DNA of 64,000 nt from an uncultured Acidobacteriota bacterium (GCA_963770895.1 CAVYRF010000001.1:2016001-2080000), one strand, 5' to 3'; shown: positions 15,616 to 56,585, numbered from the stretch's first letter. Numbers and translations are program-made. The notes: generated from the sequence alone by a model not told the origin.

Positions 15616-16857
15616 TTAGGACGTGCTGCGCTCTTCCGTGTCCTGGGCGGCGGCTTCAGTGCTCACCTGTGGCACCGGCTTCCATCGCTCGTCCAGCTGA
15701 TCCCAGGAGATCTCCCATACCGGCTCGCCCAGCCCACGACCAGCGATGTAAAGGCCGCTGTGGCCGGCGGCGACGGAAAGGCGGCGGTTGCCCGAGGAGA
15801 TTTCGCCCAGCAGCACGCGGTTCAGCTGTTGGGCGGTATGGTCCCAGCAGTCCACGGCCAGTCCCTGAGAGGTCTCCACCACGAGATAGACGCGGTTACC
15901 CTGTGCGGTCATGCCGCGTACCACCCGCACCGCCTGCGAGGCACCCAGCGCAGCGCGGTCGAGCTTGATCCCTTCGGCCTGCGCCCGCTTTTCCATTGCT
16001 TGCCACTCGTCCGCGGAGCGTTCAGCCCAGCGCACCTGGCCGCCGCCCACCGTCACCGACTCCTTGACAGCGCCGGCGGCTGAATACATCTTCAGCGCGT
16101 AGGCATTTTGCTGTGCTACCCAGATCGCACCGTCGCGGCCGGCTGTAAGCCGAGTGTCGCGTTCGGCCTTGGTTTTGAGGAACGAGCCGGGGGAAGGGAG
16201 ATCCGTGCTTTTGTTCTGGTCAAAGCGCAGCGATGGCTGCACTGCCAGGGTTCGCCAGCCCTGATCGTCGAACTGCAAAAGCAACGGTGGCGTGTCCCAG
16301 GTCGGGTCCTTGAAGTTCGAGGATGCGCCGGCGTTCCGGTTGCTGTCGCGCGCCGGTACCACCGCCACGACAGGACCGCTTCTGGTATACGTCAGCGCCG
16401 AAATCATCCAGCCCGCCGCCGGCACTGGCCGGCGTTCGTTACCCCGCAACAGCGATAGATGGCCGTCCGGCGCACTTTCCAGGAGCCAAGCATCGCCGTC
16501 CGGGCTCATCGCCGCATCAGCCACCCAATCCACCGCCACTGCACCCCCGGCAGGCACCGCAGCATGCGCAACCACGATCTTGCCAGAAGGCAGGATCTGG
16601 TCGATCTGCAGGCGATCGCCATGCAGCAGAAAGACCCGCCCTTCGGTGTCCGCCTGCATGAACTGCAACGCCTGGTTGTTTTCAAGCGCCGGATCGCCAC
16701 CGATCTTGACCGGCGCCACACGGTGAAACGAACCCGCGGCTCCCGAGTCCGTGGCTCCCACCGCGGGGAGGGCGATCAGCAGCAACCCGAACCCTATCCT
16801 TGTCCACCCAATGGTGCTGTTCTGGCAGCGCACAGGACGATCGCTCTGTTTATTCAT
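15616..16857 (-). CDS. Secreted hypothetical protein (family C paralog; beta-rich, possibly beta-propeller)
   Basis: Hydrophobic leader IGFGLLLIALPAVGA; shares blocks with 25375-26517 (PALE, QF..DxxGR..LL.GD, W.IS...Y..SGP, G.IW.AxQN.Y, VYLVV, L.RVLL). Start moved from 17013 because upstream DNA is a remnant of another gene. Confidence 0.8.
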   Translation of the reverse strand: MNKQSDRPVRCQNSTIGWTRIGFGLLLIALPAVGATDSGAAGSFHRVAPVKIGGDPALENNQALQFMQADTEGRVFLLHGDRLQIDQILPSGKIVVAHAAVPAGGAVAVDWVADAAMSPDGDAWLLESAPDGHLSLLRGNERRPVPAAGWMISALTYTRSGPVVAVVPARDSNRNAGASSNFKDPTWDTPPLLLQFDDQGWRTLAVQPSLRFDQNKSTDLPSPGSFLKTKAERDTRLTAGRDGAIWVAQQNAYALKMYSAAGAVKESVTVGGGQVRWAERSADEWQAMEKRAQAEGIKLDRAALGASQAVRVVRGMTAQGNRVYLVVETSQGLAVDCWDHTAQQLNRVLLGEISSGNRRLSVAAGHSGLYIAGRGLGEPVWEISWDQLDERWKPVPQVSTEAAAQDTEERSTS

Positions 16858-16867
16858 ATGGGGCCAG

Positions 16868-17012
16868 AGGCTAGGCCTAAAAGAGCGGCTTACCGTCCGC
16901 GGTTGCGTCCTGCACGGGCTTCCAATGCGCAACCGCCAGGGGTTTTCAACGGGAATCCGCCAAATCCCATCTGTTGCGAGCCGCCCACCAAGCCAGAGCT
17001 GATCCGGCGCCA
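16868..17012 (-). pseudogene. 3'-terminal remnant of a copy of gene 25375-26517
   Basis: Near-identical to ~25367-25508 (APDQLWLGGRLA.DGIWRIPVE...DGKPLF*), with a small indel. Confidence 0.85.
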
Positions 17013-17033
17013 CCGCGGCTCAGCCGCCCGGTT

Positions 17034-17076
17034 GTTCCCTATAGGTTGTGTTGCCGCAAGGCGCAAATTACGGACA
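17034..17076 (-). promoter_or_regulatory. Conserved promoter-like motif, copy 2
   Basis: Minus strand TGTCCGTAATTTGCG-N18-TATAGGGAAC, pointing toward 15616-16857. Confidence 0.6.
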
Positions 17077-17368
17077 TGGCCTCGGCGAGCGGCTGTGCGC
17101 TCAGATCGTTGCGCTGGGGTGGGCCGCAGGCCGCAATATGTGCTGGGTGAGAGCGGTCGCGGTAAACGATGGAAGGCGGGCGTTGGTTGATCAAGATAAG
17201 CGATGGTCGTGGGGTGGCGACCATCAAGTAGCGTGATCGGCAGGGTAGGTCAGCATCATCGGCGCCCGCAGGGCGCCATCCGCTCAAAACAAGGAAGCCC
17301 TCCAGGGGTTGACGCCACCCCCGGAGGGCTTGTCTGCTTTCGTTGTCGACGCGAAAGGAGACGATCCC

Positions 17369-17953
17369 TTGTACCAGACCTTGCTGCGAGATTCCAGCTT
17401 GTTCGAGCTACTGCTGCGCTTCGACGCCGATCTGGCGGCAATGGTTCGCGAGGGCGGATGCGCCGTCTGCGGAGGGGCGCTGCACAGCGCTCGCTACCGG
17501 CGCAAGCCACGGGGCGGTCCCCTGGGGCTCGGGGCCGAGTACGCCTTGCGGCAGAGCTTCTGCTGCGCCACCGAGGGCTGCCGGCGGCGAGCGACGCCAC
17601 CGTCGGTACGGTTCCTCGGCCGCAAGGTGTTCTTCGGTCTCTGGGTGCTGCTGCTGCCGGTGCTTCGGGAAGGGCCGACAGCCGAGCGCCTGCACCGTCT
17701 GGAGGAGGTTTTTAGAGTGAGCCGGCGGACCCTGTTGCGCTGGCGGCGGTGGTGGCGCGAGGTCGTGCCACGGAGCCGATTCTGGCAGTCGCGGCGCGGC
17801 GACTGGGCTTCGCCAGTGCCGCCGGCGGCGCTACCGAGCTCCCTGCTGGCCGGGTTCGAGCACCTTGCCGGGATCGCCGAGCAGGCGTTGTCGGCGCTGC
17901 GCTGGCTGGCGCCGCTCGGCGCCACCGGCAGCTTCTTGGATCACGCTCGGTGA
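17369..17953 (+). CDS. Transposon accessory protein (Cys-rich putative Zn-ribbon plus HTH-like segment)
   Basis: AAAGGAG RBS before TTG 17369; CAVCGG...FCCATEGCRRR; VSRRTLLRWRRWW. Confidence 0.75.
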   Translation: MYQTLLRDSSLFELLLRFDADLAAMVREGGCAVCGGALHSARYRRKPRGGPLGLGAEYALRQSFCCATEGCRRRATPPSVRFLGRKVFFGLWVLLLPVLREGPTAERLHRLEEVFRVSRRTLLRWRRWWREVVPRSRFWQSRRGDWASPVPPAALPSSLLAGFEHLAGIAEQALSALRWLAPLGATGSFLDHAR

Positions 17954-18061
17954 GGTCCGACGCCGACCCGCAGAAGATGCGTCTGGCGGTCGTCGGGCAA
18001 CCGCCGTAGCCTCGGCTTCGCCGGCGAGAAACCCCAGGACGCCGGTTCCGGGAGGCGCGCG

Positions 18062-19516
18062 ATGCCGCACGAGCACGAGGTGCGCTCTCACGAGCGCTGG
18101 GCGCATCTGCGCTTTGCTGTTGTCGGGCCGCTGCTGGCCTCGCCGCCGGCAGCCGGCGAGCTCCAGACGGAGCTGTCCCGTCTGGCGTCGAGACTCTGGC
18201 AGCATCCGGTCTCCGGTCAGCCGGTGCGCTTTGCCGTCTCGACGATCGAGCGCTGGTACTACCAGGCCCGACACGGCAACGACCCGGTGGCCGTCTTGCG
18301 CCGCAAGATCCGCAGCGACAGCGGCCAGCAGCAGGCCCTCAGCGCTGAGCTCGGAGAGGCGCTGCGACGCCAGCATGCAGCCCATCCGAGCTGGAGCTAC
18401 CAGCTGCACCTCGACAATCTGGCCGTCCTGGTCGCCGAGCAGTCGAACTGGGGTCCACTGCCGTCCTACGCCAGCCTGCGGCGCTACATGGTGGTGCATG
18501 GCTGGCTGCGACGCCGGCGAGTGCCGCGTGGCCAGCGCCCGGGAGAGCGCCTGGCCGAAGAGCGCCGAGAGGCGCGCGAGACGCGCAGCTACGAGGCTGA
18601 GTACGTCGGCGGCCTCTGGCATCTGGACTTCCATCACGGATCGCTGAAGATCCTCAATGCGCAGGGCGAGTGGGTGCAGCCGGTGCTGCTGGCGATCCTC
18701 GACGATCGATCGCGACTGCTCTGCCACGCCCAGTGGTATCTGAGCGAAACCGCCGCGAGTCTGGTGCACGGCCTGGTGCAGGCCTTTCAAAAGCGCGGTC
18801 TGCCGCGGGCGCTGCTGACCGACAACGGCGGCCCGATGCTTGCGGCCGAAACCACCCAAGGTCTACAACGCCTCGCCGTCGTCCACTCCACCACGCTCTC
18901 GTACTCCCCGCATCAGAACGGCAAGCAAGAGGTGTTCTGGGTGCAGGTCGAAGGCCGGCTGCTGGCCATGCTCGAAGATCAGCCTGACCTGACGCTGGGC
19001 CTGCTCAACGAGGCCACGCTCGCCTGGGTGGAGATGGAGTACCAGCGGACCCGGCACTCCGAGACCGGCCAGGCCCCGCTGACGCGCTGGCTCGATGGCC
19101 CCACGGTGATCCGTCCTTGTCCAGAGACCAACGACCTCCGCTTCGCCTTCACCGCTGCGGCCGAACGCACTCAGCGTCAGAGCGACGGCACCCTCAGCCT
19201 CGACGGCACCCGCTTCGAGGTCCCCGGCCGCTTTCGCCACCTGCGGCGGCTGGCGCTACGGTATGCGAGCTGGGATCTGCGCTCGGTCTGGCTCGTCGAC
19301 CCACGCACCGGCGTCGCTCTCGAGCGGCTCTATCCTCTCGACCGCACCCGAAACTCCGAGGGCGTAAGACGCCCGCTCGCACCGCCGTCGCTACCGACCG
19401 CGGAGATCACTGCCCAGCCCGGCGGCATCGCGCCGCTGCTGCGCCAGCTCATGGCCGACTACGCCGCCACCGGCCTGCCTCCCGCTTACATCGCCTACGA
19501 CGAGGAGCACACATGA
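18062..19516 (+). CDS. DDE transposase (rve core with Mu-like C-terminal domain)
   Basis: LWHLDFHH, ILDDRSRL, LLTDNGG, PHQNGKQEVFW (D-D-E); N-terminal HTH STIERWYY; C-terminal DGTLSLDGTRFEVP; GGAGG RBS. Confidence 0.92.
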   Translation: MPHEHEVRSHERWAHLRFAVVGPLLASPPAAGELQTELSRLASRLWQHPVSGQPVRFAVSTIERWYYQARHGNDPVAVLRRKIRSDSGQQQALSAELGEALRRQHAAHPSWSYQLHLDNLAVLVAEQSNWGPLPSYASLRRYMVVHGWLRRRRVPRGQRPGERLAEERREARETRSYEAEYVGGLWHLDFHHGSLKILNAQGEWVQPVLLAILDDRSRLLCHAQWYLSETAASLVHGLVQAFQKRGLPRALLTDNGGPMLAAETTQGLQRLAVVHSTTLSYSPHQNGKQEVFWVQVEGRLLAMLEDQPDLTLGLLNEATLAWVEMEYQRTRHSETGQAPLTRWLDGPTVIRPCPETNDLRFAFTAAAERTQRQSDGTLSLDGTRFEVPGRFRHLRRLALRYASWDLRSVWLVDPRTGVALERLYPLDRTRNSEGVRRPLAPPSLPTAEITAQPGGIAPLLRQLMADYAATGLPPAYIAYDEEHT

Positions 19517-20373
19517 TGACCCGCAACCTGCTGGCCCTATTCGGCGTCAAGTGGAATCCGTTCTCACCCGACATTCCGATCGAGGCGCTTTGGCGCACCC
19601 CCAAGATCGAGCACTTCTGCTGGCGGCTCGAAAACCTGGCGCGCGAGGGCGGCTTCGCCCTGATCACCGGCGATCCCGGAACGGGCAAGTCCGTCGCCCT
19701 CCGCGCTCTCGCCCACCATCTCGCCGCGCTGCCCGACGTCACCATCGGTGTCCTCAGCCGGCCGCAGAGCGCTCTCGGTGACTTCTACCGCGAGATGGGA
19801 CAGCTCTTCGGCCTCGCGCTCTCTCCCCACAACCGCTGGGGCGGCTTCAAGATCCTCCGGGAAAGCTGGCTTGCCCACGTCGAAGCCACCCGCTGCCGCC
19901 CCGTGCTGCTCGTCGACGAAGCTCAGGAGATGCCCGCTGCCGTCCTCGCCGAAATCCGCATCCTTGCCGCCACCGAGTTTGATTCGCGCTCGATCCTCAC
20001 CGTCGTGCTCTGCGGCGACAGCCGCCTAACGCAACAATTCCGCAGTGATGAGCTGCTGCCCATCGCCAGCCGCATCCGCGCTCGCTTGACGCTCGACTAT
20101 CTCACTCCCAAGGAGCTGCTCGATTGGCTCCAGCACGCCCTCGCCCAGGCCGGCAATCCCCAGCTGCTCACCTCCGAGGTCAAGACCACCTTGGCCGAAC
20201 ACGCGGCCGGCAACCTGCGCGTCCTCACCACCCTGGGCAATGAGCTGCTCGCACTCGCCGCTCACCGACAGCTCGCCCAGATCGATCAAAAACTCTATCT
20301 CGAAGTCTTCGCCTCGCAACCCCGACCCAAACTCAAAGCCCAAACCCCAGGCAGCAAGCACCCTCGCGCCTGA
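19513..20373 (+). CDS. ExeA/TnsC-like AAA+ ATPase of the transposon
   Basis: ATGA overlap with transposase; Walker A GDPGTGKS, Walker B LLVDEAQ; WNPF N-terminus. Confidence 0.92.
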   Translation: MMTRNLLALFGVKWNPFSPDIPIEALWRTPKIEHFCWRLENLAREGGFALITGDPGTGKSVALRALAHHLAALPDVTIGVLSRPQSALGDFYREMGQLFGLALSPHNRWGGFKILRESWLAHVEATRCRPVLLVDEAQEMPAAVLAEIRILAATEFDSRSILTVVLCGDSRLTQQFRSDELLPIASRIRARLTLDYLTPKELLDWLQHALAQAGNPQLLTSEVKTTLAEHAAGNLRVLTTLGNELLALAAHRQLAQIDQKLYLEVFASQPRPKLKAQTPGSKHPRA

Positions 20374-20416
20374 ACCTTGGCCGGCTCTCGGCTCTCCCGC
20401 CTTCCCGAGAACCACC

Positions 20417-20764
20417 ATGCTCGCTGACGCCTATATCCGCTGCATACTCGACCTCTACCGCAGCACTCCCGATACCCCGGGGCGTGCCCGCCCCGCCGAC
20501 CGCCAACTCGCCGCCTCACTCCACCAACTCGAAATCCCTCTCGATCTTGTCGCCGCCGCGCTCGTCCTTGCCACCGCCCGGCGCAGACACCGCCATCCCC
20601 AAACTCCGCCTCTTCGCCCAATACGCTCGCTTCACTACTTTCTGCCCGTCATCGACGAGCTGATCAACGATCCGCCTCCACGCGCATATTGCGACTACCT
20701 CCGCCGAAGGCTCGAAACCTCTGCCCCCAAACTCATCGCCACGATCGACCATCAAATACCATGA
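20417..20764 (+). CDS. Small transposon-associated hypothetical protein
   Basis: 115-aa ORF MLADAYIRCILDLYRSTPDTPGR...IRSLHYFLPVIDEL inside the element, ending in the right subterminal repeats. Confidence 0.65.
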   Translation: MLADAYIRCILDLYRSTPDTPGRARPADRQLAASLHQLEIPLDLVAAALVLATARRRHRHPQTPPLRPIRSLHYFLPVIDELINDPPPRAYCDYLRRRLETSAPKLIATIDHQIP

Positions 20765-20797
20765 CCGAACCGCCATCAAATACCGCGACCGCTCTCA

Positions 20798-21085
20798 CTG
20801 GGCCGCAGCTTAAGGCGTCCCTGCGCCCGCCCGATCTCCTTCGAGTTTCTTGCCTCGCGCGCACCGCGGCCCCCGTGCGCTTCGCACCCCTGCCGATAGC
20901 GGCCACTCCATCCATCTGCCCTACCAGGGGAATTTGCCCACTCGACCGCGCACTCGCCAAACCCTGAGCCCGCGGTGCGCGCTCGCGCAACAGCCACCCC
21001 TTCGGACACGAACCGGACCGGTTTGCTCCTCCTCACCCTACCCCTGGCGCTGGCCTCCCCGCCAGAACGTCACCGGCGTCGCCGA
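20798..21085. repeat. Dispersed repeat, copy 3 (3' part; 5' part at 17123-17147, split by the transposon)
   Basis: Joining 17147 to 20803 restores a sequence colinear with 26757-27065. Confidence 0.9.
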
Positions 21086-21228
21086 CCAGACAGGAACCAG
21101 TTGCCACGCGGCAGGCTGCGCCCCCGCTACCTGCCTGCCGTAGCCCCCGCTAGCCCGGATCAGATATCCGCAAAATGGAAACTTCTTGGCAAAACCGGGG
21201 CACTGCTGGGCATTCCAGGTAACCGACA

Positions 21229-21256
21229 TTGCGCAAGCAAAGTGTTGGCGTAAAAT
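21229..21256 (+). promoter_or_regulatory. Putative sigma70 promoter of first HTH-TPR gene
   Basis: TTGCGC-N16-TAAAAT in an AT-rich stretch ~110 nt upstream of ATG 21367. Confidence 0.4.
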
Positions 21257-21366
21257 CACCGGCGCTGACAGCGACAACGAATGTTTCCTCGAACGGCGAC
21301 AGCCCCGCATGGGCGACCCAAAAATCTTCTGATGGTGACCACAAACCCGATTGCCGAGGTGCCCTG

Positions 21367-23040
21367 ATGCCCAGGCCCGTTCCGTCGCCGCTCGCGATCG
21401 CCCTCACCTGGTTGCGCGAGCGCTCGGCCTGGACCCAGCGGGATCTCGCGTTGGCAGTCGGCGGGAGCTCGGTCAGTATCAGCAAGTACGAGAACGGTCA
21501 GCAGACGCTGAAACGTGAGCGGCTCGACCAGCTGGCAGCCGCCCTGGGCTACGGCCTTGCCGACGTCGATCTAGCGCTTCTCACCGTCACCGCGCTCGAC
21601 CCCGCCGCCGCAGCTACGCCCCAGGCCACTCACCCCCAACTGACCAGCCGCCAACACGGGGTCAGGGTTCGGCTCACCAAGTACGAGAGGGGCCAACGGC
21701 CGCTGAAGCGTGAGCGGCTCGATCAGCTGGCAGCCACCCTGGGCCACGACCCTGCCGACGTCGATCTGGCGCTCCTCACCATAGCCGCGCTCGACCCTAC
21801 CGCCGCGGCCGCGCCGCAGGCTCCACTGGAACATCCGGGCGCCATTCCCCCCCTGCTGGCCCGCCTCAGCCGCCGGGCCGGGGTCCGCTTTGCCATCGAA
21901 GCCGCCACTCTGGCCCAGTCATGCTGGCAGCCTCAGCTGGCCGCCCGTCGCATCGCCCAGGACCGAGCCCAGGCCGGCGACCTGTGGCAGCAGCTGGCGC
22001 GCGTCACCCCCGCGCAGCGCCGCCTCCTGGTCGAGCGCACCCTGGAGTTCCAAGGCTGGGCGCTCGCCGAGCGCCTGGCCGAGGAGAGCCGGCGTGCTGC
22101 GCCCAAGAACGCCGCTACCGCGCTGGAGCTGGCGCAGCTCGCCGTGGCGGCGGCCCGTCGCGCCGGCGGGTCCGACGCCTGGCTCAGCCGTCTGGAGGGC
22201 TACATCCGGGCGTTCCTGGCCAACGCCCTGCGTGTCCAGGGGAGCCTGTCCAGCGCCGGCGCCGAGTGGCAGACCGTCTGGCGCCTCTGGCACGCCGGCA
22301 CCGCGGGCGACCCCGCCGCCGTGCTACCGGAGTGGCGCCTGCTCGACCTGGAGGCTTCCCTGCGTCGCGATGCGCGCCAGTTTGCCGCCGCCCTGGACCT
22401 ACTCGATCGCGCCGCCGCGGCGGCTCCCAGCTCCGCAGCGGGGCGTATCTTGGTGAATCGCGCTTCGACCCTGGAACAGGCGGGCGACCTTCGGGGCGCC
22501 GTGGCCACGTTGCGGCAAGCTGAACCTATCGTTAATGAGACGCGCGAGCCGCGTCTGCAATGGCTGCTTGCGTTCAATTTCAGCGTCAACCTCTGTCATC
22601 TCGGTGGCTTCGCCGAGGCGGCATTGCAGCTGCCCAAGCTGCGGCAGCTCACGCTCAACCTCGGCAATGACTTGGACCTGGTGCGCGTCGTTTGGTTGAG
22701 CGGTCGTGTTGCGGCCGGCATGGGCAGCAGGCAGGATGCATGCGTCGCCTTTGAGGAAGTGCGGGACCAGCTGGCGGCGCGCCGCGATGGCTTCGGCACC
22801 GCCATGGTATCGCTTGAGCTGGCAGTTCTCTACTTGGAAGACGGGCGTCTTGGCGAGGTGCGCCGCCTCGCCATGCAGATGAGCTGGATCCTCGCCGCCG
22901 AGGGATTGGAGCGCGAGGTCCTCGCCGGCCTGCAGCTCTTCTGCGAGGCGGCCCGCCGCGAGGCCGCCACGATCGAGCAAGCGCGCACGGTGCTGTGCCA
23001 GCTTGGCCCCGCACCCCATTTTGGCGCCGGTGCGCTGTGA
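21367..23040 (+). CDS. XRE-family HTH + TPR-like helical regulator (copy 1, with internal duplication of the HTH second half)
   Basis: LRERSAWTQRDLALAVGGSSVSISKYENG is an HTH_3 signature; Ala/Leu-rich helical repeats; GAGGT RBS; strongly similar to 23722-25239 (EWRLLDLEASLRRDARQF, LGNDLDLVRVVWLSGR). Confidence 0.88.
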   Translation: MPRPVPSPLAIALTWLRERSAWTQRDLALAVGGSSVSISKYENGQQTLKRERLDQLAAALGYGLADVDLALLTVTALDPAAAATPQATHPQLTSRQHGVRVRLTKYERGQRPLKRERLDQLAATLGHDPADVDLALLTIAALDPTAAAAPQAPLEHPGAIPPLLARLSRRAGVRFAIEAATLAQSCWQPQLAARRIAQDRAQAGDLWQQLARVTPAQRRLLVERTLEFQGWALAERLAEESRRAAPKNAATALELAQLAVAAARRAGGSDAWLSRLEGYIRAFLANALRVQGSLSSAGAEWQTVWRLWHAGTAGDPAAVLPEWRLLDLEASLRRDARQFAAALDLLDRAAAAAPSSAAGRILVNRASTLEQAGDLRGAVATLRQAEPIVNETREPRLQWLLAFNFSVNLCHLGGFAEAALQLPKLRQLTLNLGNDLDLVRVVWLSGRVAAGMGSRQDACVAFEEVRDQLAARRDGFGTAMVSLELAVLYLEDGRLGEVRRLAMQMSWILAAEGLEREVLAGLQLFCEAARREAATIEQARTVLCQLGPAPHFGAGAL

Positions 23041-23113
23041 AGCACCCAGCCCGAGCGGCGGAGTTCACGTCTACTCTCACTGCTGACCCGCTGCAACAGG
23101 CGATACCGCCCGT

Positions 23114-23330
23114 TCAGTGCGGCGTAACTACGTTCGTGCAACGCCCATCAGGTGGCGGGCGGCGTGACCGCGTTGATGCAGCGCCCATCTGGATCCGCCG
23201 TGCAGGTTGCTTGCGGCTTAACCACGTTCGTGCAGAGGCCGTTCGGGTCTCCCGTGCAAGTTGCCTGCGGCTTAACCGCGCTCGTGCAGAGGCTGCTCGG
23301 GTCCATTCCGCAGGTGGCCTGCGGCCTCAC
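23114..23330 (-). repeat. 54-bp tandem repeat (three full units plus a fourth with a 14-nt deletion)
   Basis: Units begin at 23330, 23276, 23222 and 23168 on the minus strand. Confidence 0.85.
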
Positions 23331-23573
23331 CCGCGAGGGCGAGCGCCGCAGTGGCAGTTGGGCGCTGCTGGAGGGCCGCCCCGCCCACGGCCAAATTGCG
23401 CTCAGCCACCGGCCCAACTGGGCCACGACATCGACACCAGGGCCACCTGGGGAGCCAGGAAAGCTGAGGCCGGCAGCCGAAGTGGCTGCTACGGAGCTGG
23501 ATACGTTCGTCCAACCTGCCACAGCAAGGACGGCGGCCGCGACGGCAATGCGACGGGGGATTCTTGGACGCAT
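23148..23573 (-). CDS. Secreted peptide precursor with tandem 18-aa Cys-x-x-DPx(G/S)-x-Cys cores
   Basis: Signal peptide MRPRIPRRIAVAAAVLAVAG..., W-rich spacer LGRWLSAIWPW, cores VRPQATCGMDPSSLCTSA / VKPQATCTGDPNGLCTNV / VKPQATCTADPDGRCINA; AAAGGA RBS. Confidence 0.8.
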   Translation of the reverse strand: MRPRIPRRIAVAAAVLAVAGWTNVSSSVAATSAAGLSFPGSPGGPGVDVVAQLGRWLSAIWPWAGRPSSSAQLPLRRSPSRVRPQATCGMDPSSLCTSAVKPQATCTGDPNGLCTNVVKPQATCTADPDGRCINAVTPPAT

Positions 23574-23639
23574 AGGGAAGTCCTTTCGTGGGGCGCTGCC
23601 GCTCGCGGCCGGAATTGGCCGGGGGCGGCCCGCGTCCCT

Positions 23640-23686
23640 GACAATCCGCTGCCGGTACGATTGTCGAGGTTAAAAATATACTTTTT
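23640..23686. promoter_or_regulatory. Divergent control region between peptide gene and HTH-TPR gene
   Basis: Inverted repeat GACAATC-N12-GATTGTC (23640-23665) and quasi-palindrome AAAAATATACTTTTT (23672-23686). Confidence 0.5.
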
Positions 23687-23721
23687 CCGAGTACGGTATT
23701 CACGCGGGGAGGATTGCACGC

Positions 23722-25239
23722 ATGGCATCGCCAGGGCTTGACGACCAAGGGTTGCTTCTCCAGTGGCTGCGCGCAGTCCGGGGCTGGGACCAAAGCCAGC
23801 TTGGAGCGGCGGTCGGCATCTCGCAAGCCTCGATCTCTCGCTACGAGAAAGGAGAGGTGCCAGTACGGCCAGAAGCGCTGGAGCGCATCACCGCCGCCGT
23901 AGGACTGCCGGTCTGGTTCGTGAAGCGCTACTTGGTGCCCGTTTTTCGTGCCACCCGCAGTCTTTCGGCGACCGTGGCGACCAGCCCCTCATCGGGTGCC
24001 CACCCCCCGCTTGCCCAAGACCATAAACCCCTCGACGGGGGCGTCCTGGAGGCGGCTCTACGCGCGATGCTTGACGGGGCGCTGGCCGAGGTCGAGGCGG
24101 CGGCCATAGCTGCGGCAAACCAGAGAAGCACCCCCCGGCCCTTGCCGTCGCCGCGCGACCGCGAGGACGCCGCGCGCGCCTGGGACCGTCTGGCGCCCTG
24201 CGCCGCGGCTGACCGCCAATGGCTGGTTGAGCGGTGCGCCGAGTTCCACCTGTGGGCGCTGGCCGAGCGGCTCTGTGACGAGAGCGCGCGAGCGGCGCCC
24301 CAAGAGGCGGCAGCAGCCCTCGACCTGGCCCGCCTCGCCCTTACCGTGGCGCAGCGCACCGGCGGTGCTGAGCCCTGGCGCCGGCGCTTGCAAGGTTACG
24401 CGCGGGCCTTCCTGGCCAACGTATTGCGCGTCACCGGTGAGCTGGTGGCGGCCGGAGCTGAATTCGCAAAGGCTTGGGAGCTGTGGCGCTCCAGCGGCGA
24501 GGGCGACCCCGCCGGCCTGCTGGAAGAGTGGCGCCTGCTCGACCTGGAAGCCTCCCTGCGGCGCGACGCCCGGCAATTCCACGACGCGCTCGATCTGTTG
24601 GAGCGCGCCGCGGCCGTAGCGCCGCCGCGCGCCCTTGGCGGCATCCTGCTCAACAAGGCGTCCACCCTGGAGCAGGCAGGCGACCCGGCGGGCGCTCTCG
24701 CCGTCCTGCGGCAGGCCGCGCCGCTGGTCGCGAGCAGCGACGCACCCCGCCTGCACTGGATATTGGACTTCAACCTGTGCGTCAACCTCTGCCATCTCCG
24801 CCAATTCGCCGAGGCCGAGGCACAGCTGCCGCGCCTCCGCCAGCTCGCCCTGGACCTGGGCAACGACCTGGACCTGGTGCGTGTCGTCTGGCTGAGCGGC
24901 CGCACGGCCGCGGGCTCCGGCCGCCGCGCCGAGGCGTGCGCCGCCTTCGAGCAGGTGCGCGGGGAGCTCACGATCAGGAAGGACGCCTTCGGCACCGCCA
25001 TGGTCTCGCTGGAGCTGGCGCAGCTCTACCTGGACGAGGGCCGCACCGCCGAAGTGCGCGAGCTCGCCGCGGAAATGGCGTGGGTCCTTGCCGCCAAAGG
25101 CCTGGAGCGCGAAGCGTTGGCCGCCCTGCGCCTGTTCTGCGATGCCGCCCAGCGTGAGGCGGCGACCCTCGATCAGGTGCGGCGGGTGCTGGGCCAGCTG
25201 GAGCGCACCGCCGTCCTGCCGCGTCCCGCCGCTCTCTGA
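23722..25239 (+). CDS. XRE-family HTH + TPR-like helical regulator (copy 2)
   Basis: LRAVRGWDQSQLGAAVGISQASISRYEKG HTH_3 signature; GGAGG RBS; paralog of 21367-23040. Confidence 0.9.
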   Translation: MASPGLDDQGLLLQWLRAVRGWDQSQLGAAVGISQASISRYEKGEVPVRPEALERITAAVGLPVWFVKRYLVPVFRATRSLSATVATSPSSGAHPPLAQDHKPLDGGVLEAALRAMLDGALAEVEAAAIAAANQRSTPRPLPSPRDREDAARAWDRLAPCAAADRQWLVERCAEFHLWALAERLCDESARAAPQEAAAALDLARLALTVAQRTGGAEPWRRRLQGYARAFLANVLRVTGELVAAGAEFAKAWELWRSSGEGDPAGLLEEWRLLDLEASLRRDARQFHDALDLLERAAAVAPPRALGGILLNKASTLEQAGDPAGALAVLRQAAPLVASSDAPRLHWILDFNLCVNLCHLRQFAEAEAQLPRLRQLALDLGNDLDLVRVVWLSGRTAAGSGRRAEACAAFEQVRGELTIRKDAFGTAMVSLELAQLYLDEGRTAEVRELAAEMAWVLAAKGLEREALAALRLFCDAAQREAATLDQVRRVLGQLERTAVLPRPAAL

Positions 25240-25374
25240 CGGCCGCCGCCGGCCCGTTCTCTCCAGTTACAGGGGAGAGCACGACGGCCGTGGTGCGTGC
25301 GAAATCGGCCGCCCCCGTTCCGCCGGCGGCCCGCTCGCGGGCGATCGCCGGCGGGACGGGGGCAAAGGCTAGGC

Positions 25375-26517
25375 CTAGAAGAGCGGCTTACCGTCCGCGG
25401 TTGCGTCCTGCACGGGCTTCCAATGCGCAACCGCCAGGGTTTCAACGGGAATCCGCCAAATCCCGTCTGCTGCGAGCCGTCCACCAAGCCAGAGCTGATC
25501 CGGCGCCAGCGCGGCCGACATGGGGCCGGATGAAACCGTCACTCCTTCGAGCAACACCCGCTCCAAAGTGTTCTGCGAAGGGTTGAAGCGGTCCAGGGCC
25601 ATCCCTTCGGGGCTGGAAACCACCAGGTAGACATAACCATCCCGGCCGCAGACCAGAGCCCGTACGACCCCACGGGCAATCCCAGCAGGGGATTCGGGTG
25701 AGGCGGCGCGGTTCGCACCTTGCGCTGCGCGGTTCCGCCATTCCCGTTCCTGATCCTGCTTTCCAAGCTTCTGCCACTGCAGGTCACCGCTGCCAACCAC
25801 GATTTCATGCTCGGGGGTCTCGGACGAAGAGGAGAGCTTCTGCAAGCGATAGCTGTTCTGCGAAGCGCTCCAGAGCGCCCCACCTTGGCCTGCGCACAGG
25901 AGCGTCTCCGTCTGCGCCCTACCTGCAGCCATCATCTCGAAGGCGCTTGCAGGCTTCTCTTTGAACTGGACAATTGGAGCCGAGACGACGGGCTGCCAGC
26001 GTCCATTCGTGAGAGCGAAAACCCGCGGGACCGTTTTCTTGAAACGATCTGCAGCGTCAGGGGGAGGCCCCAGCGATGTGACGCTGACCAGGGGACCAGA
26101 GGCTGAATAGGCCGCGGAAGAGATGACCCATCGAAGATCGGGAAAGCTCTCTTGCCTGCTGAAATCGCACACCGCCACTTCGCGGGGCGAACTCACGACC
26201 CAGGTCTGTCCTGCCGGATCCTTGGCGGCGGCATAGGCGGGAGCCAGCTGGTGGTCGCAAGCCAGCACACCCAGGCGATGGTCGAAACCTTCATCGGCTC
26301 CCAGGCCGAAAACTTCAAAGGAATCTCCGCGCAGGAGCCAGGGCCGCCCTTGGACATCCGTGGCAAGAAACTGCGTCGTCTCGGCCTTTTCGAGGGCAGG
26401 CGCCGCGACCCGGAGCACTCGCACCCTGGCATACCCAGAAGCATCCTTTGGGGACTGTGGGAGGGCTGCCGCAGGGAGCACCAAGAATATGAAAAAACTA
26501 GCGCTTACGATTCGCAT
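25375..26517 (-). CDS. Secreted hypothetical protein (family C; beta-rich, possibly beta-propeller)
   Basis: Signal peptide MRIVSASFFIFLVLPAAALP; paralog of 15616-16857. Confidence 0.82.
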   Translation of the reverse strand: MRIVSASFFIFLVLPAAALPQSPKDASGYARVRVLRVAAPALEKAETTQFLATDVQGRPWLLRGDSFEVFGLGADEGFDHRLGVLACDHQLAPAYAAAKDPAGQTWVVSSPREVAVCDFSRQESFPDLRWVISSAAYSASGPLVSVTSLGPPPDAADRFKKTVPRVFALTNGRWQPVVSAPIVQFKEKPASAFEMMAAGRAQTETLLCAGQGGALWSASQNSYRLQKLSSSSETPEHEIVVGSGDLQWQKLGKQDQEREWRNRAAQGANRAASPESPAGIARGVVRALVCGRDGYVYLVVSSPEGMALDRFNPSQNTLERVLLEGVTVSSGPMSAALAPDQLWLGGRLAADGIWRIPVETLAVAHWKPVQDATADGKPLF

Positions 26518-26663
26518 ACGTGTCACCTTGCCTCATGCCTATTTTTGGATCTCCTATCGAAAGAGGTGCGGGTAGTCCCTGGGGCCAATGCTGCCGGCGC
26601 TATCAGTCACGAAGCCGTGAAGTCATGGCTTCGCGCCGCACACCGCGACCCGGCCGCCCGGTT

Positions 26664-26707
26664 GTTCCCTATATGCAGTGTTGCCGCAAGGCGCAAATTA
26701 CGGACAG
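26664..26707 (-). promoter_or_regulatory. Conserved promoter-like motif, copy 3
   Basis: Minus strand CTGTCCGTAATTTGCG-N18-TATAGGGAAC upstream of 25375-26517. Confidence 0.6.
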
Positions 26708-26756
26708 GGGCGGCTCGCGGCGAGTGGCTGTGTGCTCAGATCGTTGCGCTGGGTGG

Positions 26757-27065
26757 GCCGCAGGCCGCAATATGTGCTGGGCTGCAGGTTAAGGCGTTCC
26801 AGGCGCCCACCCGATCTCCTTCGAATCTCTTGCCTCGCGCGCACCGCGGCCCCCGTGCGCTTCGCACCCCTGCCGATAGCGCCCGCTCCAGCCATCTGCC
26901 GCACCAGGGGAATTTGCCCACTCGACCGCGCACTCGCCAAACCCTGAGCCCGCGGTGCGCGCTCGGGCGACAGCCAGCCCTGCGGACATGAACCAGACCG
27001 GCTTGCTCCTCCTCGCGCTACCCCTGCCGCTGGCCCCCCGGCCAGAACTTGACCGCCGGCGCCGA
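26757..27065. repeat. Dispersed repeat, copy 4 (uninterrupted)
   Basis: Colinear with copies 1 and 3; contains the hairpin GTGCG-CTT-CGCAC. Confidence 0.9.
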
Positions 27066-27140
27066 TCCGATTGCCGCCCGTCGCCGCGTGCGCGCGACGA
27101 CGGGCGGAATCACTCGGCCAACGGCGGCGGCGCCGGCGGC

Positions 27141-28961
27141 TTACTTTTTGGCGTCGGCCAGGATCACGTCGGTGGCTTTTTCCGAGATCATGTAGGTCGG
27201 CGTGACGATGAAGAAGCCGGGGATGCGGGGGAAGACCGAGGCGTCGACGATGCGCAGGTTTTGCGTGCCGATGACGCGGAAGTTGCTGTCGACGACGGCG
27301 TTGGGGTCGGTGGCGGCGCCCATGGGGTTGGTGCACGAGGCGTGGTGGCCCCAGGCGTTGTCCTTGACGAACTGCACGATCTGGTCGTGGGTCGCGACGG
27401 CCGGTCCGGGGACCGTCTCCTGCTGGATCGCGCCGTTGTGCCGCGAGATCTGGCGCACGAATTCGACGCCGTTGGCGACCGACTCGGCGTCGGTGCCCTG
27501 GGTGTCGTTGCCGTCGTCGAAGTAGCGGAAGTTGATGTCCGGCGGGTCCAGCGGGCTGGCCGAGCGCAGGCGGACGGAGCCGGCGGTGTTGTTGGTGTGG
27601 GCCTTGAGGATCGCCCAGGTGAGGAAGTTCTTGGTGCGCTCGACTTCCTGCGAATAGCCGGGGAAGTAGCCGTAGAACTTGCCGGGCAGGGCGAAGATGA
27701 ACAGGTCGGGATCGGGGCGCTCCGGCGCCGATTTCTTGATCACCCCCAGGACCGCGCCGCCGGTCGTGTAGACCCCCTTGCCGTTCTGCCAGTCCGTGTA
27801 GCAAGGGTCGCCCGGCTGGTTGGGGAGCGGCGGAGCGAAGGTCGCGCCGGCCAGCACCTTCCAGTCCTGCTTCATCTCGGTGACGACGCCGATTTCGTAG
27901 CGGTCCTGCAGGTTGCTGCCGACTCCCGGCCGGTCCAGCAGGCAGGCGATGCCGAACTGTTCGAGGTGCGCCCGCGGCCCGATGCCGGACAGCATCAGCA
28001 GCTGCGGCGAATTGAAGGCGCCGCCGGCGAGGATCACTTCCCGCGCGCAGTAGTACTGCACCACGTCGTAGTCGTTGCCGGCCTGCGGGTTGTCGACGGC
28101 CTGCGGGTCGGCTTTGTACAGGTGCTGGCCTTCCCAGCATTCGACGCCGATGGCACGCTTGTCGGCGTCGAAGAGGACCTTGGTCGCCAAGGTGCTCATC
28201 TTGATCACCAGGTTCTGCGGCAGGGCGGCACGCGTGCCGTCGATCAGCTCGCGCGTGCTTTCGCGGCGGCCGCTCAAGGTGGCGGACGGGGCGAAGCAGA
28301 TGCCCTCGAACTGCGGCGTGCGCCAGTCGTTGGGGTCCTGCGGCAGGAGCTGCGGCAGCGGCCCGCTCAGCCCCTCTTTCCACGCCCCCAGGATGGCGCC
28401 CAGGATGGTCTGGATCAGCGCCGGATCGCCGAACACCAGCGACAGCTCGGGGCCGGTGGTGTTCAGCCAGCCGTCCCAACCGTGGCGCGTCGGGTTGGGC
28501 TGGCCGGCGCCGGGATTGGCGACGTAGCCGCACCGTTCCAGGCGCTCGAAGTAGCCGCGCATCTTGTCGGACGACCACGACGCATCGCCGGTCAGCTGGG
28601 CGATGTGGTCCCAATCGCTGTTGTGACCATAGACGGTGATCATCGCGTTGTGCGACGTGCAGCCGCCCAGGGTGCCGGCGCGGGGATAGAAGATGCCGCC
28701 CTTGTCGGCGGCGTACTTGGAGTCGCGTTGCGGATTTTCGCCGTAATGTTTGACGAAGAACTCCCACGACATTTCCGGATCTTCGCTGGCGTAGGAGTTG
28801 AACACCGGCACCGGGTAGGAGGTGGTGTCGGGCTCCTGGCCGGCCTCGATCAGGCCGACCTTGTAGCCGGCCTTGGCCAGGTTGCAGGCCAGCGGCCCGC
28901 CCCCGGCGCCGGAGCCGACGATGATGTAGTCGAAATCTGGGTGTTGCGGATCGTTCGGCAT
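27141..28961 (-). CDS. GMC-family FAD oxidoreductase (choline dehydrogenase-like)
   Basis: DYIIVGSGAGGG FAD motif, YPRAGTLGGCTSHNAMI, GGAFNSPQLLMLSGIGP, GHHASCT, NLRIVDASVFP. Confidence 0.93.
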   Translation of the reverse strand: MPNDPQHPDFDYIIVGSGAGGGPLACNLAKAGYKVGLIEAGQEPDTTSYPVPVFNSYASEDPEMSWEFFVKHYGENPQRDSKYAADKGGIFYPRAGTLGGCTSHNAMITVYGHNSDWDHIAQLTGDASWSSDKMRGYFERLERCGYVANPGAGQPNPTRHGWDGWLNTTGPELSLVFGDPALIQTILGAILGAWKEGLSGPLPQLLPQDPNDWRTPQFEGICFAPSATLSGRRESTRELIDGTRAALPQNLVIKMSTLATKVLFDADKRAIGVECWEGQHLYKADPQAVDNPQAGNDYDVVQYYCAREVILAGGAFNSPQLLMLSGIGPRAHLEQFGIACLLDRPGVGSNLQDRYEIGVVTEMKQDWKVLAGATFAPPLPNQPGDPCYTDWQNGKGVYTTGGAVLGVIKKSAPERPDPDLFIFALPGKFYGYFPGYSQEVERTKNFLTWAILKAHTNNTAGSVRLRSASPLDPPDINFRYFDDGNDTQGTDAESVANGVEFVRQISRHNGAIQQETVPGPAVATHDQIVQFVKDNAWGHHASCTNPMGAATDPNAVVDSNFRVIGTQNLRIVDASVFPRIPGFFIVTPTYMISEKATDVILADAKK

Positions 28962-28973
28962 GCCCACGTCCCC

Positions 28974-54146: not shown

Positions 54147-56585
54147 ATGCTGCGCGATCTGATCCAGGCCTGGCGCTCGTTGCGCCGCAGCAAGGAATAC
54201 GCCCTGGCGGCGATCCTGACGCTGGCGCTCGGGCTGGGGGCCAATGCGGCGATCTTCACCGCGGTGCTGGGGGCGGTGCTGCGGCCGCTGCCGCTGCCGG
54301 ATTCCGAGCGCCTGATGTGGGTGGGGCACGCGCACCGCGAAAGCGGCGTCGTCGCGGCCTTCTCGCCGCAGGATTTCGACGATCTGGCGCGCGCCACGAA
54401 CGGTCGCGTCTTCAGCGATATCGCGGACTACGCGTTCTTTCCGCGCCTGAGCGGCATGAACCTGACCGGCACCGGCGCGCCGCTGCGAGTGCCGGTGGCG
54501 AACGTCTCCGGTGCCTGGTTCCGCACCCTGGGAGCGGCGGCGGAGCTGGGGCGGGCGCTGCAGCCGGACGACGACCGCCTGGGCGGCGACCACGTGGTGG
54601 TGTTGAGCCACGCCCTGTGGCGCAGCCGCTTCGCCCACGATCGGGCGATCGTCGGGCGCAAGGTGGTGCTCGACGGCGAACCGTTCGTGATCGCCGGCGT
54701 CATGCCGGCGGGGTTCACCCTGCCGGACCGCCAGGTGGGCCTGTGGGCGCCGCTGTCGCTGGTGGGCGACGCCAAGGTGCCCCATCGCCGCGAAGTGCGC
54801 TGGCTTTCGGTCGTCGGCCGCCTGGCGCCAGGGGTGACGCAGCAGGCTGCCGCGGCGCACGTCGGGACGGTGCTGGCCAGCCTGGAGCGGCAGTTCCCGG
54901 ACAGCAACAAGGGCTGGGGCAGGGCGGCGCTGCGCCCGCTGCACGACGTGATCGTCGGCGACGTGCGCCCGCTGTTCACCGTGCTGGCCGCGGCGGCCGG
55001 CGCGGTGCTGCTGATCGTCTGCGTCAACCTGGCCAACCTGACTCTGGCGCGAGCGACGGGGCGCAGCCGCGAGATGGCGATCCGGGCGGCGGTCGGCGCC
55101 ACGCCGATGCGCCTGACGCGCCAGCTGATGGCCGAGAGCCTGGCCCTGGCACTGGCCGGCGGCGCGCTGGGGCTGCTGCTGGCGCACTGGGGGGTGGCGG
55201 CGCTGCGTGAGTCCGCCGCCGATTTCGTGCCGCGCGCGGGCGAAATGCGTCTGGACGGCATCGTGGCGGTGTTCACCCTGGCGCTGGCGCTCGCCGCCGG
55301 CATCGGCTTCGGCCTGGCGCCGGCGCTGTCGGCCGCCGCCTCCAGCCTGCGGGAGGCCCTGCAGCAGTTCGGCAGCGCTGCCGGCGCCGGCGGAACCCGG
55401 CGCCGGCGATCGGCCCGCAGCCTTGGGGGGAGCAGCCTGGTGGTGCTCGAAACCGCCCTGGCCACGGTGCTGCTGCTGGGCGCCAGCCTGCTGCTGCGCA
55501 GCTTCTGGCAGCTGCTGCACGTCGAACCCGGCTTCGACAGCGCCAGCGTGCTCAGCCTGAGCATCAGCGTTCCCGAGCGGGCGCTCAATCCCACCGACAA
55601 CGGCATGCGCTATGTCGACGCCATCCTGGACCGCCTGCGCGCCCTGCCCGGAGTGGTGGCGGCGGGCGCCAGCCACACCTTGCCCCTGGCCGGCGGCGCC
55701 GATACCTACAAGTTCACCACCGAAGGCGACGCGTCCCCCCGCGAGGTGATGCCGGCCGGAGGGGTGCTGACCGCCACGTCCGGCTACTTCCGCGCGCTCG
55801 GCATTCCGCTCGTCGTCGGGCGCGACTTCGACCGCCGCGACGACGACGGCAAGGCGCCGCCGGCGATCGTCGTCAACCAGGCGCTGGCGCGCCAGCTGTG
55901 GCCCGGCCAGAGCCCGCTCGGCAGGCGGCTGCGCAGCGGCGAGCTGAGCATGCAGATCGTCGGCGTGGTCGCCGACGTGCACAACGACGGTCTGGCCAAG
56001 CCGGTCGCGCCGGCGGTCTACGGGCCGCCCTTCCTGTTCACGCGCTCGACCCTGAAGCTGTTCGTGCGCACCGTCGGAGCCCCGCTGGCCACCCTGGGGG
56101 CGGCGCGGCGCGCGATCTGGGACGTCGACCACGATCTGCCGATCGCCGAGGAGGTCACCATGCAGGACGTGGTGGATTCCAGCGTCGCCCTGCCGCGGCT
56201 GCTGAGCTGGCTGGTGGGCGCCTTCGGCGGCCTGGCGGCGCTGCTCGCCGCCCTGGGCACCTACGGCGTGATCGCCTACGGCGTGCGCCGCCGCACGCGC
56301 GAGATCGGCGTGCGCATGGCGCTCGGCGCCGACCGTACCGGCGTCATCGGCCTGGTGGTGCGCCAGGGGCTGGGGCTGTGTCTGTGCGGCCTCGCCTGCG
56401 GCCTGCTGGCCGGCCTTGCCGGCGCGCCGCTCCTGGGCAGCCTGCTTTTCCAGGTGAAGCCGTTCGATCCGGTCGCCTGTGCCGCCGCGGCGCTGGTCGT
56501 CGTCGCCTCCGCGCTGGCCGCCAGCTATTTCCCGGCGCGCGAGGCGGCGAGCGTCGACCCGCTGCTGGCGATCCGCAGCGAGTGA
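54147..56585 (+). CDS. ABC transporter permease, ADOP/MacB-like duplicated type
   Basis: LTLALGLGANAAIF, LLIVCVNLANL, REMAIRAAVGA, RTREIGVRMALGA, VDPLLAIRSE. Confidence 0.93.
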   Translation: MLRDLIQAWRSLRRSKEYALAAILTLALGLGANAAIFTAVLGAVLRPLPLPDSERLMWVGHAHRESGVVAAFSPQDFDDLARATNGRVFSDIADYAFFPRLSGMNLTGTGAPLRVPVANVSGAWFRTLGAAAELGRALQPDDDRLGGDHVVVLSHALWRSRFAHDRAIVGRKVVLDGEPFVIAGVMPAGFTLPDRQVGLWAPLSLVGDAKVPHRREVRWLSVVGRLAPGVTQQAAAAHVGTVLASLERQFPDSNKGWGRAALRPLHDVIVGDVRPLFTVLAAAAGAVLLIVCVNLANLTLARATGRSREMAIRAAVGATPMRLTRQLMAESLALALAGGALGLLLAHWGVAALRESAADFVPRAGEMRLDGIVAVFTLALALAAGIGFGLAPALSAAASSLREALQQFGSAAGAGGTRRRRSARSLGGSSLVVLETALATVLLLGASLLLRSFWQLLHVEPGFDSASVLSLSISVPERALNPTDNGMRYVDAILDRLRALPGVVAAGASHTLPLAGGADTYKFTTEGDASPREVMPAGGVLTATSGYFRALGIPLVVGRDFDRRDDDGKAPPAIVVNQALARQLWPGQSPLGRRLRSGELSMQIVGVVADVHNDGLAKPVAPAVYGPPFLFTRSTLKLFVRTVGAPLATLGAARRAIWDVDHDLPIAEEVTMQDVVDSSVALPRLLSWLVGAFGGLAALLAALGTYGVIAYGVRRRTREIGVRMALGADRTGVIGLVVRQGLGLCLCGLACGLLAGLAGAPLLGSLLFQVKPFDPVACAAAALVVVASALAASYFPAREAASVDPLLAIRSE

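Follow-up and report, generated by a model that had tools for sequence, protein, structure and literature searches.

A peptide precursor gene between two paralogous helix-turn-helix/TPR regulators in an Acidobacteriota genome: a candidate RRNPP-like signalling cassette from a large unnamed gene family

Receptors of the RRNPPA group have been described for Bacillota and their mobile elements (PMC10075063, PMC12700828). In NprR-NprX and PlcR-PapR of the Bacillus cereus group, the receptor is a cytoplasmic protein with an XRE-type helix-turn-helix (HTH) domain and a C-terminal superhelix of tetratricopeptide repeats (TPR), and the adjacent small gene encodes an exported propeptide with a short conserved motif towards its C-terminus. 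A similar arrangement was found at positions 21367-25239 of a 64,000-nucleotide stretch of DNA from an uncultured Acidobacteriota bacterium (GCA_963770895.1, CAVYRF010000001.1:2016001-2080000), which is called the window here. At this locus, the gene of an apparently exported precursor of 141 amino acids (aa) lies between two paralogous XRE-HTH/TPR regulator genes, reg1 and reg2 (Table 1). Our best explanation, to which we give about an even chance, is that this three-gene unit is a signalling cassette of peptide and receptors, operating in the manner of the RRNPP(A) systems of Bacillota.

The differences from NprR-NprX and PlcR-PapR are considerable. Beyond the generic HTH and TPR there is no sequence or profile similarity, the host belongs to the Acidobacteriota (Thermoanaerobaculia by the names of homologues), each peptide would have two receptors, one convergent and one divergent, with a 90-residue linker between HTH and TPR, and the cores are repeated and, in the window, would be closed by Cys pairs. 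In Rgg-SHP and PrgX-PrgQ, a common control region lies between divergent regulator and peptide genes, which is also the layout of reg2 and the peptide gene, but the peptides of those systems are small and hydrophobic without a classical multi-core pro-region, and the receptors are shorter. In the Rap-Phr systems of phages phi3T and phi105, the pheromones are tandemly duplicated and the copies are released by proteolysis (PMC11343458). As is proposed for the window locus, these systems have several pheromone copies per propeptide and a TPR receptor; many paralogous pairs per genome are a further likeness, and the peptide-bound structures 8rte, 8rst and 8rsv are among the best matches of our reg2 model. 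Unlike the window regulators, Rap has no HTH and acts by protein-protein contacts; the Phr peptides are linear penta- to heptapeptides, and rap is followed by phr in the same direction.

The RRNPP-like reading had been proposed in the earlier note on this DNA, and it stood in part. Linkage, TPR fold, HTH domain and adjacent exported propeptide gene all appear to be present, with the signal peptide judged by eye, but the receptors showed no homology to a described RRNPPA subfamily in profile and sequence searches, and the locus lies outside Bacillota and their plasmids and phages. No description of peptide-TPR signalling of this kind in Acidobacteria was found in the open literature, a search that left subscription journals and bioRxiv supplements outside. 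New in this analysis are the domain mosaic of the regulators, the Cys-less forms adjoining HTH-TPR genes, and the size of the family.

The peptide precursor and its linkage to the regulators

The peptide gene and reg1 are convergent, 107 nt apart from stop to stop, and the peptide gene and reg2 are divergent, 148 nt apart from start to start. This layout is the one given in the earlier note, and the open reading frames (ORFs) confirmed it. The ATG of reg1 lies inside a longer frame (21229-23040), and the metagenomic orthologue P0017 has the same start. Four close paralogues of the peptide gene (E 1e-24 or better), with the same regulator-peptide-regulator layout, are found in the host genome (8.16 Mb, 3 contigs, 70.8% GC), and the three-gene unit is one copy of a large gene family without a name. 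A Shine-Dalgarno sequence, GAAAGGA, is located 7 nt upstream of the peptide ATG and is present in all four closest paralogues. Nonsynonymous differences per site (pN, 0.19-0.36) were below synonymous ones (pS, 0.46-0.65) in 6/6 pairs among the four closest peptide paralogues, and the peptide frame appears to be under purifying selection.

The N-terminus of the precursor, read by eye, has four Arg, a hydrophobic run of 13 residues and a VAA site, and cleavage at this site with export of the precursor is predicted. A W-rich amphipathic stretch follows (LGRWLSAIWPW), in which W61 is nearly invariant within the pattern LLxxLWxxLxxLW (alignments A1 and A3), and a W-rich pro-region of this kind lies upstream of the first core in all family members. 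The three core units, RPQATCGMDPSSLCTSAV, KPQATCTGDPNGLCTNVV and KPQATCTADPDGRCINAV, correspond to a 54-nt period detected by Tandem Repeats Finder at 23198-23325 (2.0-2.3 copies, 81-88% matches), and the C, D, P, G and C columns are invariant in both alignments. The tandem C-x-x-DPxG-x-C cores described previously were thus recovered as 18-aa units, except that unit 1 of the window precursor has DPSS instead of DPxG. In the best 150 representatives, which are skewed to the Cys type used to build the family model, 139 precursors have 3 or 4 cores, 479/500 cores are Cys-flanked, and the unit consensus is [DKE]-[NEA]-G-C-x-[ILV]-D-P-[NDSH]-G-x-C. The two variable residues before DP are identical in 31.6% of core pairs within a precursor versus 3.6% between precursors. 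Since a signal peptide and a pro-region are combined with a short conserved motif that is C-terminal or nearly so, the logic of the precursor fits that of pheromone propeptides.

Thirty loci were compared from five genomes of three genera. Seventeen of them are triads like that of the window, with Cys-flanked cores and an HTH-TPR gene on either side. At the remaining 13 the cores are mostly Cys-less, for example EGMTIDPNG, EGLAGDPNG and NHGTIDPNG, and are often the exact end of the protein; these precursors have a co-directional TPR protein downstream, the N-terminus of which is not an XRE HTH. Hence the TPR domain keeps its peptide partner under a different N-terminal domain, which supports its reading as a receptor. 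The N-terminal domain of these proteins carries an invariant H-x4-C-x2-C (model predicted local distance difference test, pLDDT, 84.9). An anti-sigma (ZAS-like) identity of this domain was dropped, since it had no Pfam match even at E 10; no sigma-factor-like ORF was seen at four co-directional loci, where ORF starts were read by eye without a Pfam scan. The two types of TPR protein share the motif (A/G)N(A/V)xRV, with the Asn and Arg invariant in the second type (N175, R178) and nearly invariant in the reg2 family (N233, R236).

The genome of the window also encodes single-core Cys-less precursors, which end in ...DPYGG or ...DPNGGG and adjoin HTH-TPR genes. Because such relatives, devoid of both Cys, adjoin the same regulators, the conserved unit is [DEK]-x-G-x-x-x-D-P-x-G, and the disulfide loop described in the earlier note does not define the family. 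As to the form of the mature signal, the Cys-less relatives often end in ...DPNG or ...DPYGG, while the window cores are Cys-flanked and repeated. All forms share a signal peptide, a W-rich helix, a [DE]-x-G-x-x-x-D-P-x-G core and an adjacent TPR domain; they differ in core number, in the presence of the Cys pair and in the N-terminal domain of the regulator. In G037, a genome of another family of the taxonomic order, a small ORF lies upstream of a TPR protein (L058 277-606, the same as L063 1780-2109). It has a signal peptide, a LFDLLVGWLGSLV helix and a C-terminal ...YIDPIGNS, was matched by the family model only at E 0.14, and may be a distant Cys-less relative.

Linkage between peptides and regulators was measured with family model A3, built from 20 members. 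In the genome of the window, the distance to a regulator paralogue is at most 1.9 kb for 14/14 matches (E up to 0.01) and at most 500 bp for 13. A six-frame search of the whole genome with the motif C.{2,4}DP.G.{0,3}C placed 22/48 matches within 1 kb of 37 regulator intervals, whose flanks amount to 0.9% of the genome. In the complete genome G091, from another genus, 23/26 peptide matches have a regulator within 1.5 kb, the three regulator-less ones being weak (E 9e-7 to 6e-4), and 31/42 regulator matches have a peptide within the same distance. At the 19 best-match loci of 15 other genomes, a regulator homologue was present in the 1.5-kb flanks in 19/19 and a motif-bearing ORF in 17/19; a regulator homologue was likewise found in the 1.5-kb flanks at 30/30 of the loci compared above. 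A regulator homologue was therefore present at 49/49 sampled loci, in line with the expected adjacency of regulators and secreted peptide ORFs. These loci from other genomes are best matches and not a random sample, and the genomes of one family are kin, so that the counts are not independent.

The range of the family is narrow and its size is large. The peptide model matches 90/92 genomes of one Thermoanaerobaculia family, including 56/56 of high quality, with up to 37 matches per genome, and 0/250 other Acidobacteriota genomes, for each of which 18 candidates were scored. An earlier, narrower model matched 24/36 genomes in the family and 0/24 in other families of the order. The regulator as a whole protein was found in 2/250 genomes, both of the same order, with only the TPR part matching at 32-34% identity, and the reg2 homologues named by NCBI come from metagenome-assembled genomes labelled 'Thermoanaerobaculia bacterium'. 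Among 1.84 billion cluster representatives, the peptide model matches 1997 proteins with a cut-off of E 0.001 and 756 with one of E 1e-10; a word-based search with the window peptide returned one metagenomic relative. The peptide has no match in Pfam or NCBIfam, and all clusters returned by the protein Atlas were unnamed ones of Acidobacteriota, with scores of 0.88 or less, in agreement with the previous statement that no characterised family fits. Public sequencing runs containing part of the stretch comprise seven of DNA or unknown type and none of RNA.

Apart from the regulators, no other gene is conserved near the peptides when ORFs are clustered over 9 kb on either side of 10 loci of the same genome. 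Nor is a protease, transporter or modifying enzyme conserved over 7 kb on either side of 20 loci in 5 other genomes, where the next most frequent neighbour family after the regulators occurs at 3/20 loci. These results bear on the possibility that the peptide is the precursor of a ribosomally made peptide with post-translational modifications (RiPP), with the W-rich helix as the leader for a remote maturase which serves many scattered precursors and modifies Cys, Asp or Pro. One enzyme serves many scattered precursors in the case of the prochlorosins, and a conserved leader-like helix in front of a variable multi-core region would suit such a role. Bufferin-type RiPPs (PMC11626156) reportedly also occur in diderm bacteria and combine a Sec-type signal with a small Cys-containing precursor, but their genes adjoin a maturase of the MNIO family. 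Two MNIO-family genes are present in the genome of the window, at C1:645 kb and C2:4.74 Mb, hundreds of kb from every peptide locus. The lack of an adjacent maturase, pointed out in the earlier note, was borne out at all 30 loci examined for neighbours, so that the linkage of precursor and modifying enzyme typical of a RiPP cluster is not seen, and because many members keep DPxG while being Cys-less, Cys chemistry cannot be the common function. We consider a RiPP precursor improbable.

Fold and mosaic evolution of the two regulators

The two regulators are 56% identical over reg2 residues 36-493. Pfam assigns HTH_3 (E 6.7e-13) and, in two stretches, HTH_31 to reg1, and HTH_31 (E 9.4e-12) to reg2, and TPR_12 is just under the cut-off in both (22.2 and 27.6 bits, respectively, versus 30.1). 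From NCBIfam came only HTH models below threshold. In reg1, the XRE HTH is followed by a partial second HTH, a linker and the TPR domain, and a 65-aa internal duplication copies the distal half of the HTH together with the following segment. At the paralogous triads, the N-terminal extensions of the B-type regulators are longer and include extra HTH or partial TPR copies. The AlphaFold2 model of reg2, computed from an alignment of 96 sequences, has a mean pLDDT of 90.8 and shows the HTH, a linker of two helices with a disordered stretch, and a TPR superhelix. No membrane segment was seen in the sequences or in the model, and both regulators are probably cytoplasmic.

Foldseek searches of the PDB with this model returned LGN first (E 3e-5) and then peptide-bound RapJ (4gyo, E 8.5e-5), with RapF, the Rap of phage phi3T, and PlcR in complex with PapR and DNA (3u3w) further down the list. 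A search independent of Foldseek also placed LGN first (Z 22.1), followed by phi105 Rap with its peptide (8rte, Z 20.6), RapI (Z 19.7), NprR-NprX (4gpk, Z 19.4), PlcR-PapR (2qfc, Z 16.7, aligned through both HTH and TPR over residues 6-435), MalT domain III (Z 16.0) and AimR (Z 14). The TPR superhelix predicted earlier for the C-terminal domain is thus supported by the model and by its Rap, NprR and PlcR matches. As modelled, the fold agrees with a peptide receptor, yet it is not specific to one.

The same structural matches include a TPR domain that binds a W-containing peptide (3zfw, Z 13.8). In the manner of TPR chaperones, which bind secretion substrates, the regulators might capture the precursor in the cytoplasm before its export, for example by its W-rich helix, and report export flux instead of cell density. 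Outside the cores, no part of the precursor is more conserved than the W-rich amphipathic helix, and the regulators, by reading of sequence and model, lack a membrane segment, which would both suit sensing of the precursor. Precursors with an ordinary signal peptide are normally exported efficiently, however, and the locus-specific variable part is the core and not the helix. We give this possibility a slim chance. A complex prediction of the reg2 TPR domain (140-505) with precursor residues 46-141 gave an ipSAE of 0.00 in two runs, made without controls, and speaks neither for nor against binding.

The regulator pairs show a mosaic. In 15/15 triads, TPR identity between the partners (48-78%) is far above HTH identity (25-47%). 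The nearest neighbour of an HTH is its own partner in only 1/30 cases and a regulator of the same type at another locus in 26/30, and HTH identity is 36.5% within a locus versus 41.0-42.5% within a type at other loci. For the TPR domain, the nearest neighbour is the own partner in 20/30 cases and a same-type regulator of another locus in 9/30, 8 of which come from the four recently duplicated triads of the same genome; TPR identity is 62% within a locus versus 45% between loci. On the HTH tree, based on 64 columns and with weak branch supports, the A and B labels need 2 changes, a value reached in 0/500 shuffles, and the HTH of reg1 groups with B-type HTHs from other loci. On a quick tree of 46 TPR domains, the A and B domains of one locus are usually sisters, and the labels are unclustered (13-14 changes versus a shuffled mean of 13-16).

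A sliding identity profile, taken along 12 triads with three near-duplicates of the window triad from the same genome omitted, located the switch. Identity within and between loci is equal up to reg2 residue 150, and from residue 151 to the end the identity within a locus is 12-35 points higher, with the peak at 301-350; the switch at residue ~150 coincides with the start of the TPR domain. From these comparisons, the DNA-binding domains appear to be two old lineages fixed by position, and the sensor domains appear to have been repeatedly made alike, or kept alike, within each locus. Likeness of the TPR domains within a locus is expected if both sensors would have to fit the peptide encoded between them, and the mosaic is consistent with two receptors reading one locus-specific peptide.

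A proposed signalling route and the case against it

The signalling cassette would operate as follows. The N-terminal signal peptide would export the precursor, and the pro-region and spacers would be cut off to free multiple copies of a short x-x-x-D-P-x-G-based peptide, which in the window would be closed by the two Cys into a loop of 9 residues. The peptide would accumulate outside the cell, be re-imported, and bind the TPR domains of both cytoplasmic regulators, altering DNA binding through two different XRE HTHs. One target would probably be the shared 148-nt promoter region, giving autoregulation, and the ~14 cassettes in the genome would be separate channels that differ in their peptide variant. 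Export, processing, disulfide formation, re-import, binding and regulatory effect are all steps that we infer; import seems feasible, since two genes of Opp/Dpp-type binding proteins (PF00496) are present in the genome.

The shared intergenic region offers a candidate element for this regulation. The 148-nt region aligns with those of the three closest triads and contains a conserved block, GGTTAAAAATA(C/T)ACTTTTTCCG, which is an A5-N5-T5 near-palindrome in a genome of 70% GC. At up to 3 mismatches the four triads are its only matches in the genome, and it may be a promoter or operator. The 8 loci of other genera, scanned over stretches that included coding sequence, showed no AT-rich block like it.

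Several points weigh against the signalling reading. The layout is unusual for RRNPP systems, in that the convergent regulator is the partner in all triads, single-regulator loci included. Multi-copy disulfide loops are a common design for stable extracellular effectors. The coding signal of the peptide frame is weak by GC content at third codon positions (GC3), at 0.74 versus 0.63-0.73 in the overlapping frames, and since GC3 alone does not single the frame out, the coding status of the peptide ORF rests on conservation. In G091, 11/42 regulators have no detected peptide within 1.5 kb. As to the receptors, generic TPR proteins such as LGN, already mentioned, and APC subunits (Z 19-20) score equal to or higher than peptide receptors; no RRNPP-specific profile of Pfam or NCBIfam matches reg1 or reg2, which have only the generic HTH and sub-threshold TPR_12 matches; and phmmer against all PDB sequences returned only HTH proteins, at E 0.076 or worse. 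Finally, neutral gene conversion between tandem direct paralogues could homogenise the TPR domains without selection for a shared ligand.

Some of these points would suit a different role, in which the peptide is itself an extracellular effector (bacteriocin-like, metal- or calcium-binding, or part of the surface or matrix) and the HTH-TPR pair are pathway-specific regulators which sense something else. Several copies of a compact Cys-closed loop, the form of nearly all cores in the best 150 representatives, would be in keeping with an effector, and expansion and diversification up to the numbers per genome given above are typical of competition factors too. The cassette also has a lower GC3 than a neighbouring gene and is flanked by copies of a dispersed repeat, with a transposon adjoining. 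On the other hand, no immunity, transporter or processing gene is conserved near the peptides at the 10 own and 20 foreign loci, and the Cys-less members have one core at the extreme C-terminus, so that ~10 conserved residues are left after the pro-region. An effector would leave unexplained why the TPR domains are alike within a locus and the HTH domains are not, and it gives no reason for a TPR domain to keep its peptide partner under a different N-terminal domain. We regard an effector as rather unlikely.

Extending the signalling cassette to the whole family, we suggest, with some hesitation and at somewhat less than even confidence, that soil Acidobacteria belonging to one Thermoanaerobaculia family carry dozens of private channels per genome. 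These would be an independently evolved diderm counterpart of Gram-positive pheromones, in which a multi-copy, often disulfide-looped peptide is read by two TPR receptors, with co-evolving sensors and with HTHs from two old lineages. Because the HTH domains of the two receptors belong to different lineages, one signal would then drive two distinct transcriptional outputs.

Genomic setting and implications

The other features around the cassette are listed in Table 1. Upstream lies a transposon with a transposase of the rve-integrase type, an AAA_22 ATPase and a third ORF, which interrupts one copy of a dispersed repeat. Contig C2 carries a second copy, 99.9% identical and itself split by ~3.3 kb. 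The repeat, of ~450 nt, brackets the cassette plus a 383-aa gene, and the genome has at least 18 copies of its central 180-290 nt, with identities of 80-92%. Rfam gave no match at E 0.01 on 16500-27500, the bracketing repeat included. The 383-aa protein has a signal-peptide-like start and no match in Pfam or NCBIfam, and its gene is not conserved near other cassettes. GC3 is 0.74-0.84 in the cassette genes and 0.67 in the 383-aa gene, versus 0.92 in a nearby GMC oxidoreductase gene, and the lower GC3 of 21367-26526 could reflect faster evolution or foreign origin. Elsewhere in the window, ARAGORN called a tRNA-like gene to which it assigned no amino acid and whose anticodon, gtcg, has four bases. 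A dense cluster of cassette genes (L102) holds at least 3 precursor genes and four or five regulator genes, together with a family of ~470-aa helical-repeat proteins without an HTH, which is also found near C2:3.84 Mb and C2:4.27 Mb.

Table 1. Coordinates of the cassette, of related loci and of neighbouring features. Positions are those of the window unless a genome and contig are given.
Feature	Position	Strand	Description and basis
reg1 (B-type regulator)	21367..23040	+	557 aa; ORF call, Pfam; convergent with peptide gene
reg1 XRE HTH	~21391-21570
reg1 TPR domain	~21961-23004
reg1 internal tandem duplication	21462..21821	+	21462-21626 and 21657-21821, 81% identical; repeat search, translation
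Peptide gene	23148..23573	-	141-aa multi-core precursor; ORF, paralogues, family model A3, pN<pS
Signal-peptide-like N-terminus	23481..23573	-	residues 1 to ~31; translation, conserved in alignment A3
W-rich amphipathic segment	23382..23438	-	residues 46-64 (...VVAQLGRWLSAIWPWA); alignments A1, A3
Three tandem 18-aa cores	23166..23327	-	residues 83-136; PQATC-xx-DP-x-G/S-x-C each
Shine-Dalgarno-like GAAAGGAC	23580..23587	-	conserved in four paralogous intergenic regions
AT-rich near-palindrome TTAAAAATATACTTTTT	23670..23686	.	conserved block in four paralogous triads
reg2 (A-type regulator)	23722..25239	+	505 aa; Pfam, AlphaFold2; divergent from peptide gene
reg2 XRE HTH	23731-23901		residues 4-60
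reg2 linker helices			residues 64-134
reg2 TPR superhelix	24157-25212		residues 146-497
Second module type	G000:C1:1914759-1916808		L100; precursor with one or few cores, mostly Cys-less, and co-directional TPR protein
Second module type, further loci			L074, L078, L079, L087, L090, L091, L093, L095, L098, L099
Dense cassette cluster	G000:C2:490000-508000		L102
Transposon	17148-20817
Transposase, rve integrase	18062-19516
AAA_22 ATPase	~19516-20373
Bracketing repeat	26641-27088; 17011-17147 + 20818-21108		~450 nt
383-aa gene	25375-26526	-	signal-peptide-like start
GMC oxidoreductase gene	27141-28967
tRNA-like gene	55295-55388	+	ARAGORN

If the signalling proposal is true, peptide pheromone signalling would extend to a diderm phylum, one abundant in soils and difficult to cultivate. 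It would bring a new peptide form, repeated DPxG cores that are often disulfide-closed, and a new wiring, with two receptors per peptide. The 1997 cluster representatives, and the up to 37 matches in one genome, would offer many natural peptide-receptor pairs that may be orthogonal, and the domain mosaic, in which the sensor follows the locus and the output domain follows the position, may serve as a general mark for candidate ligand-receptor gene pairs.

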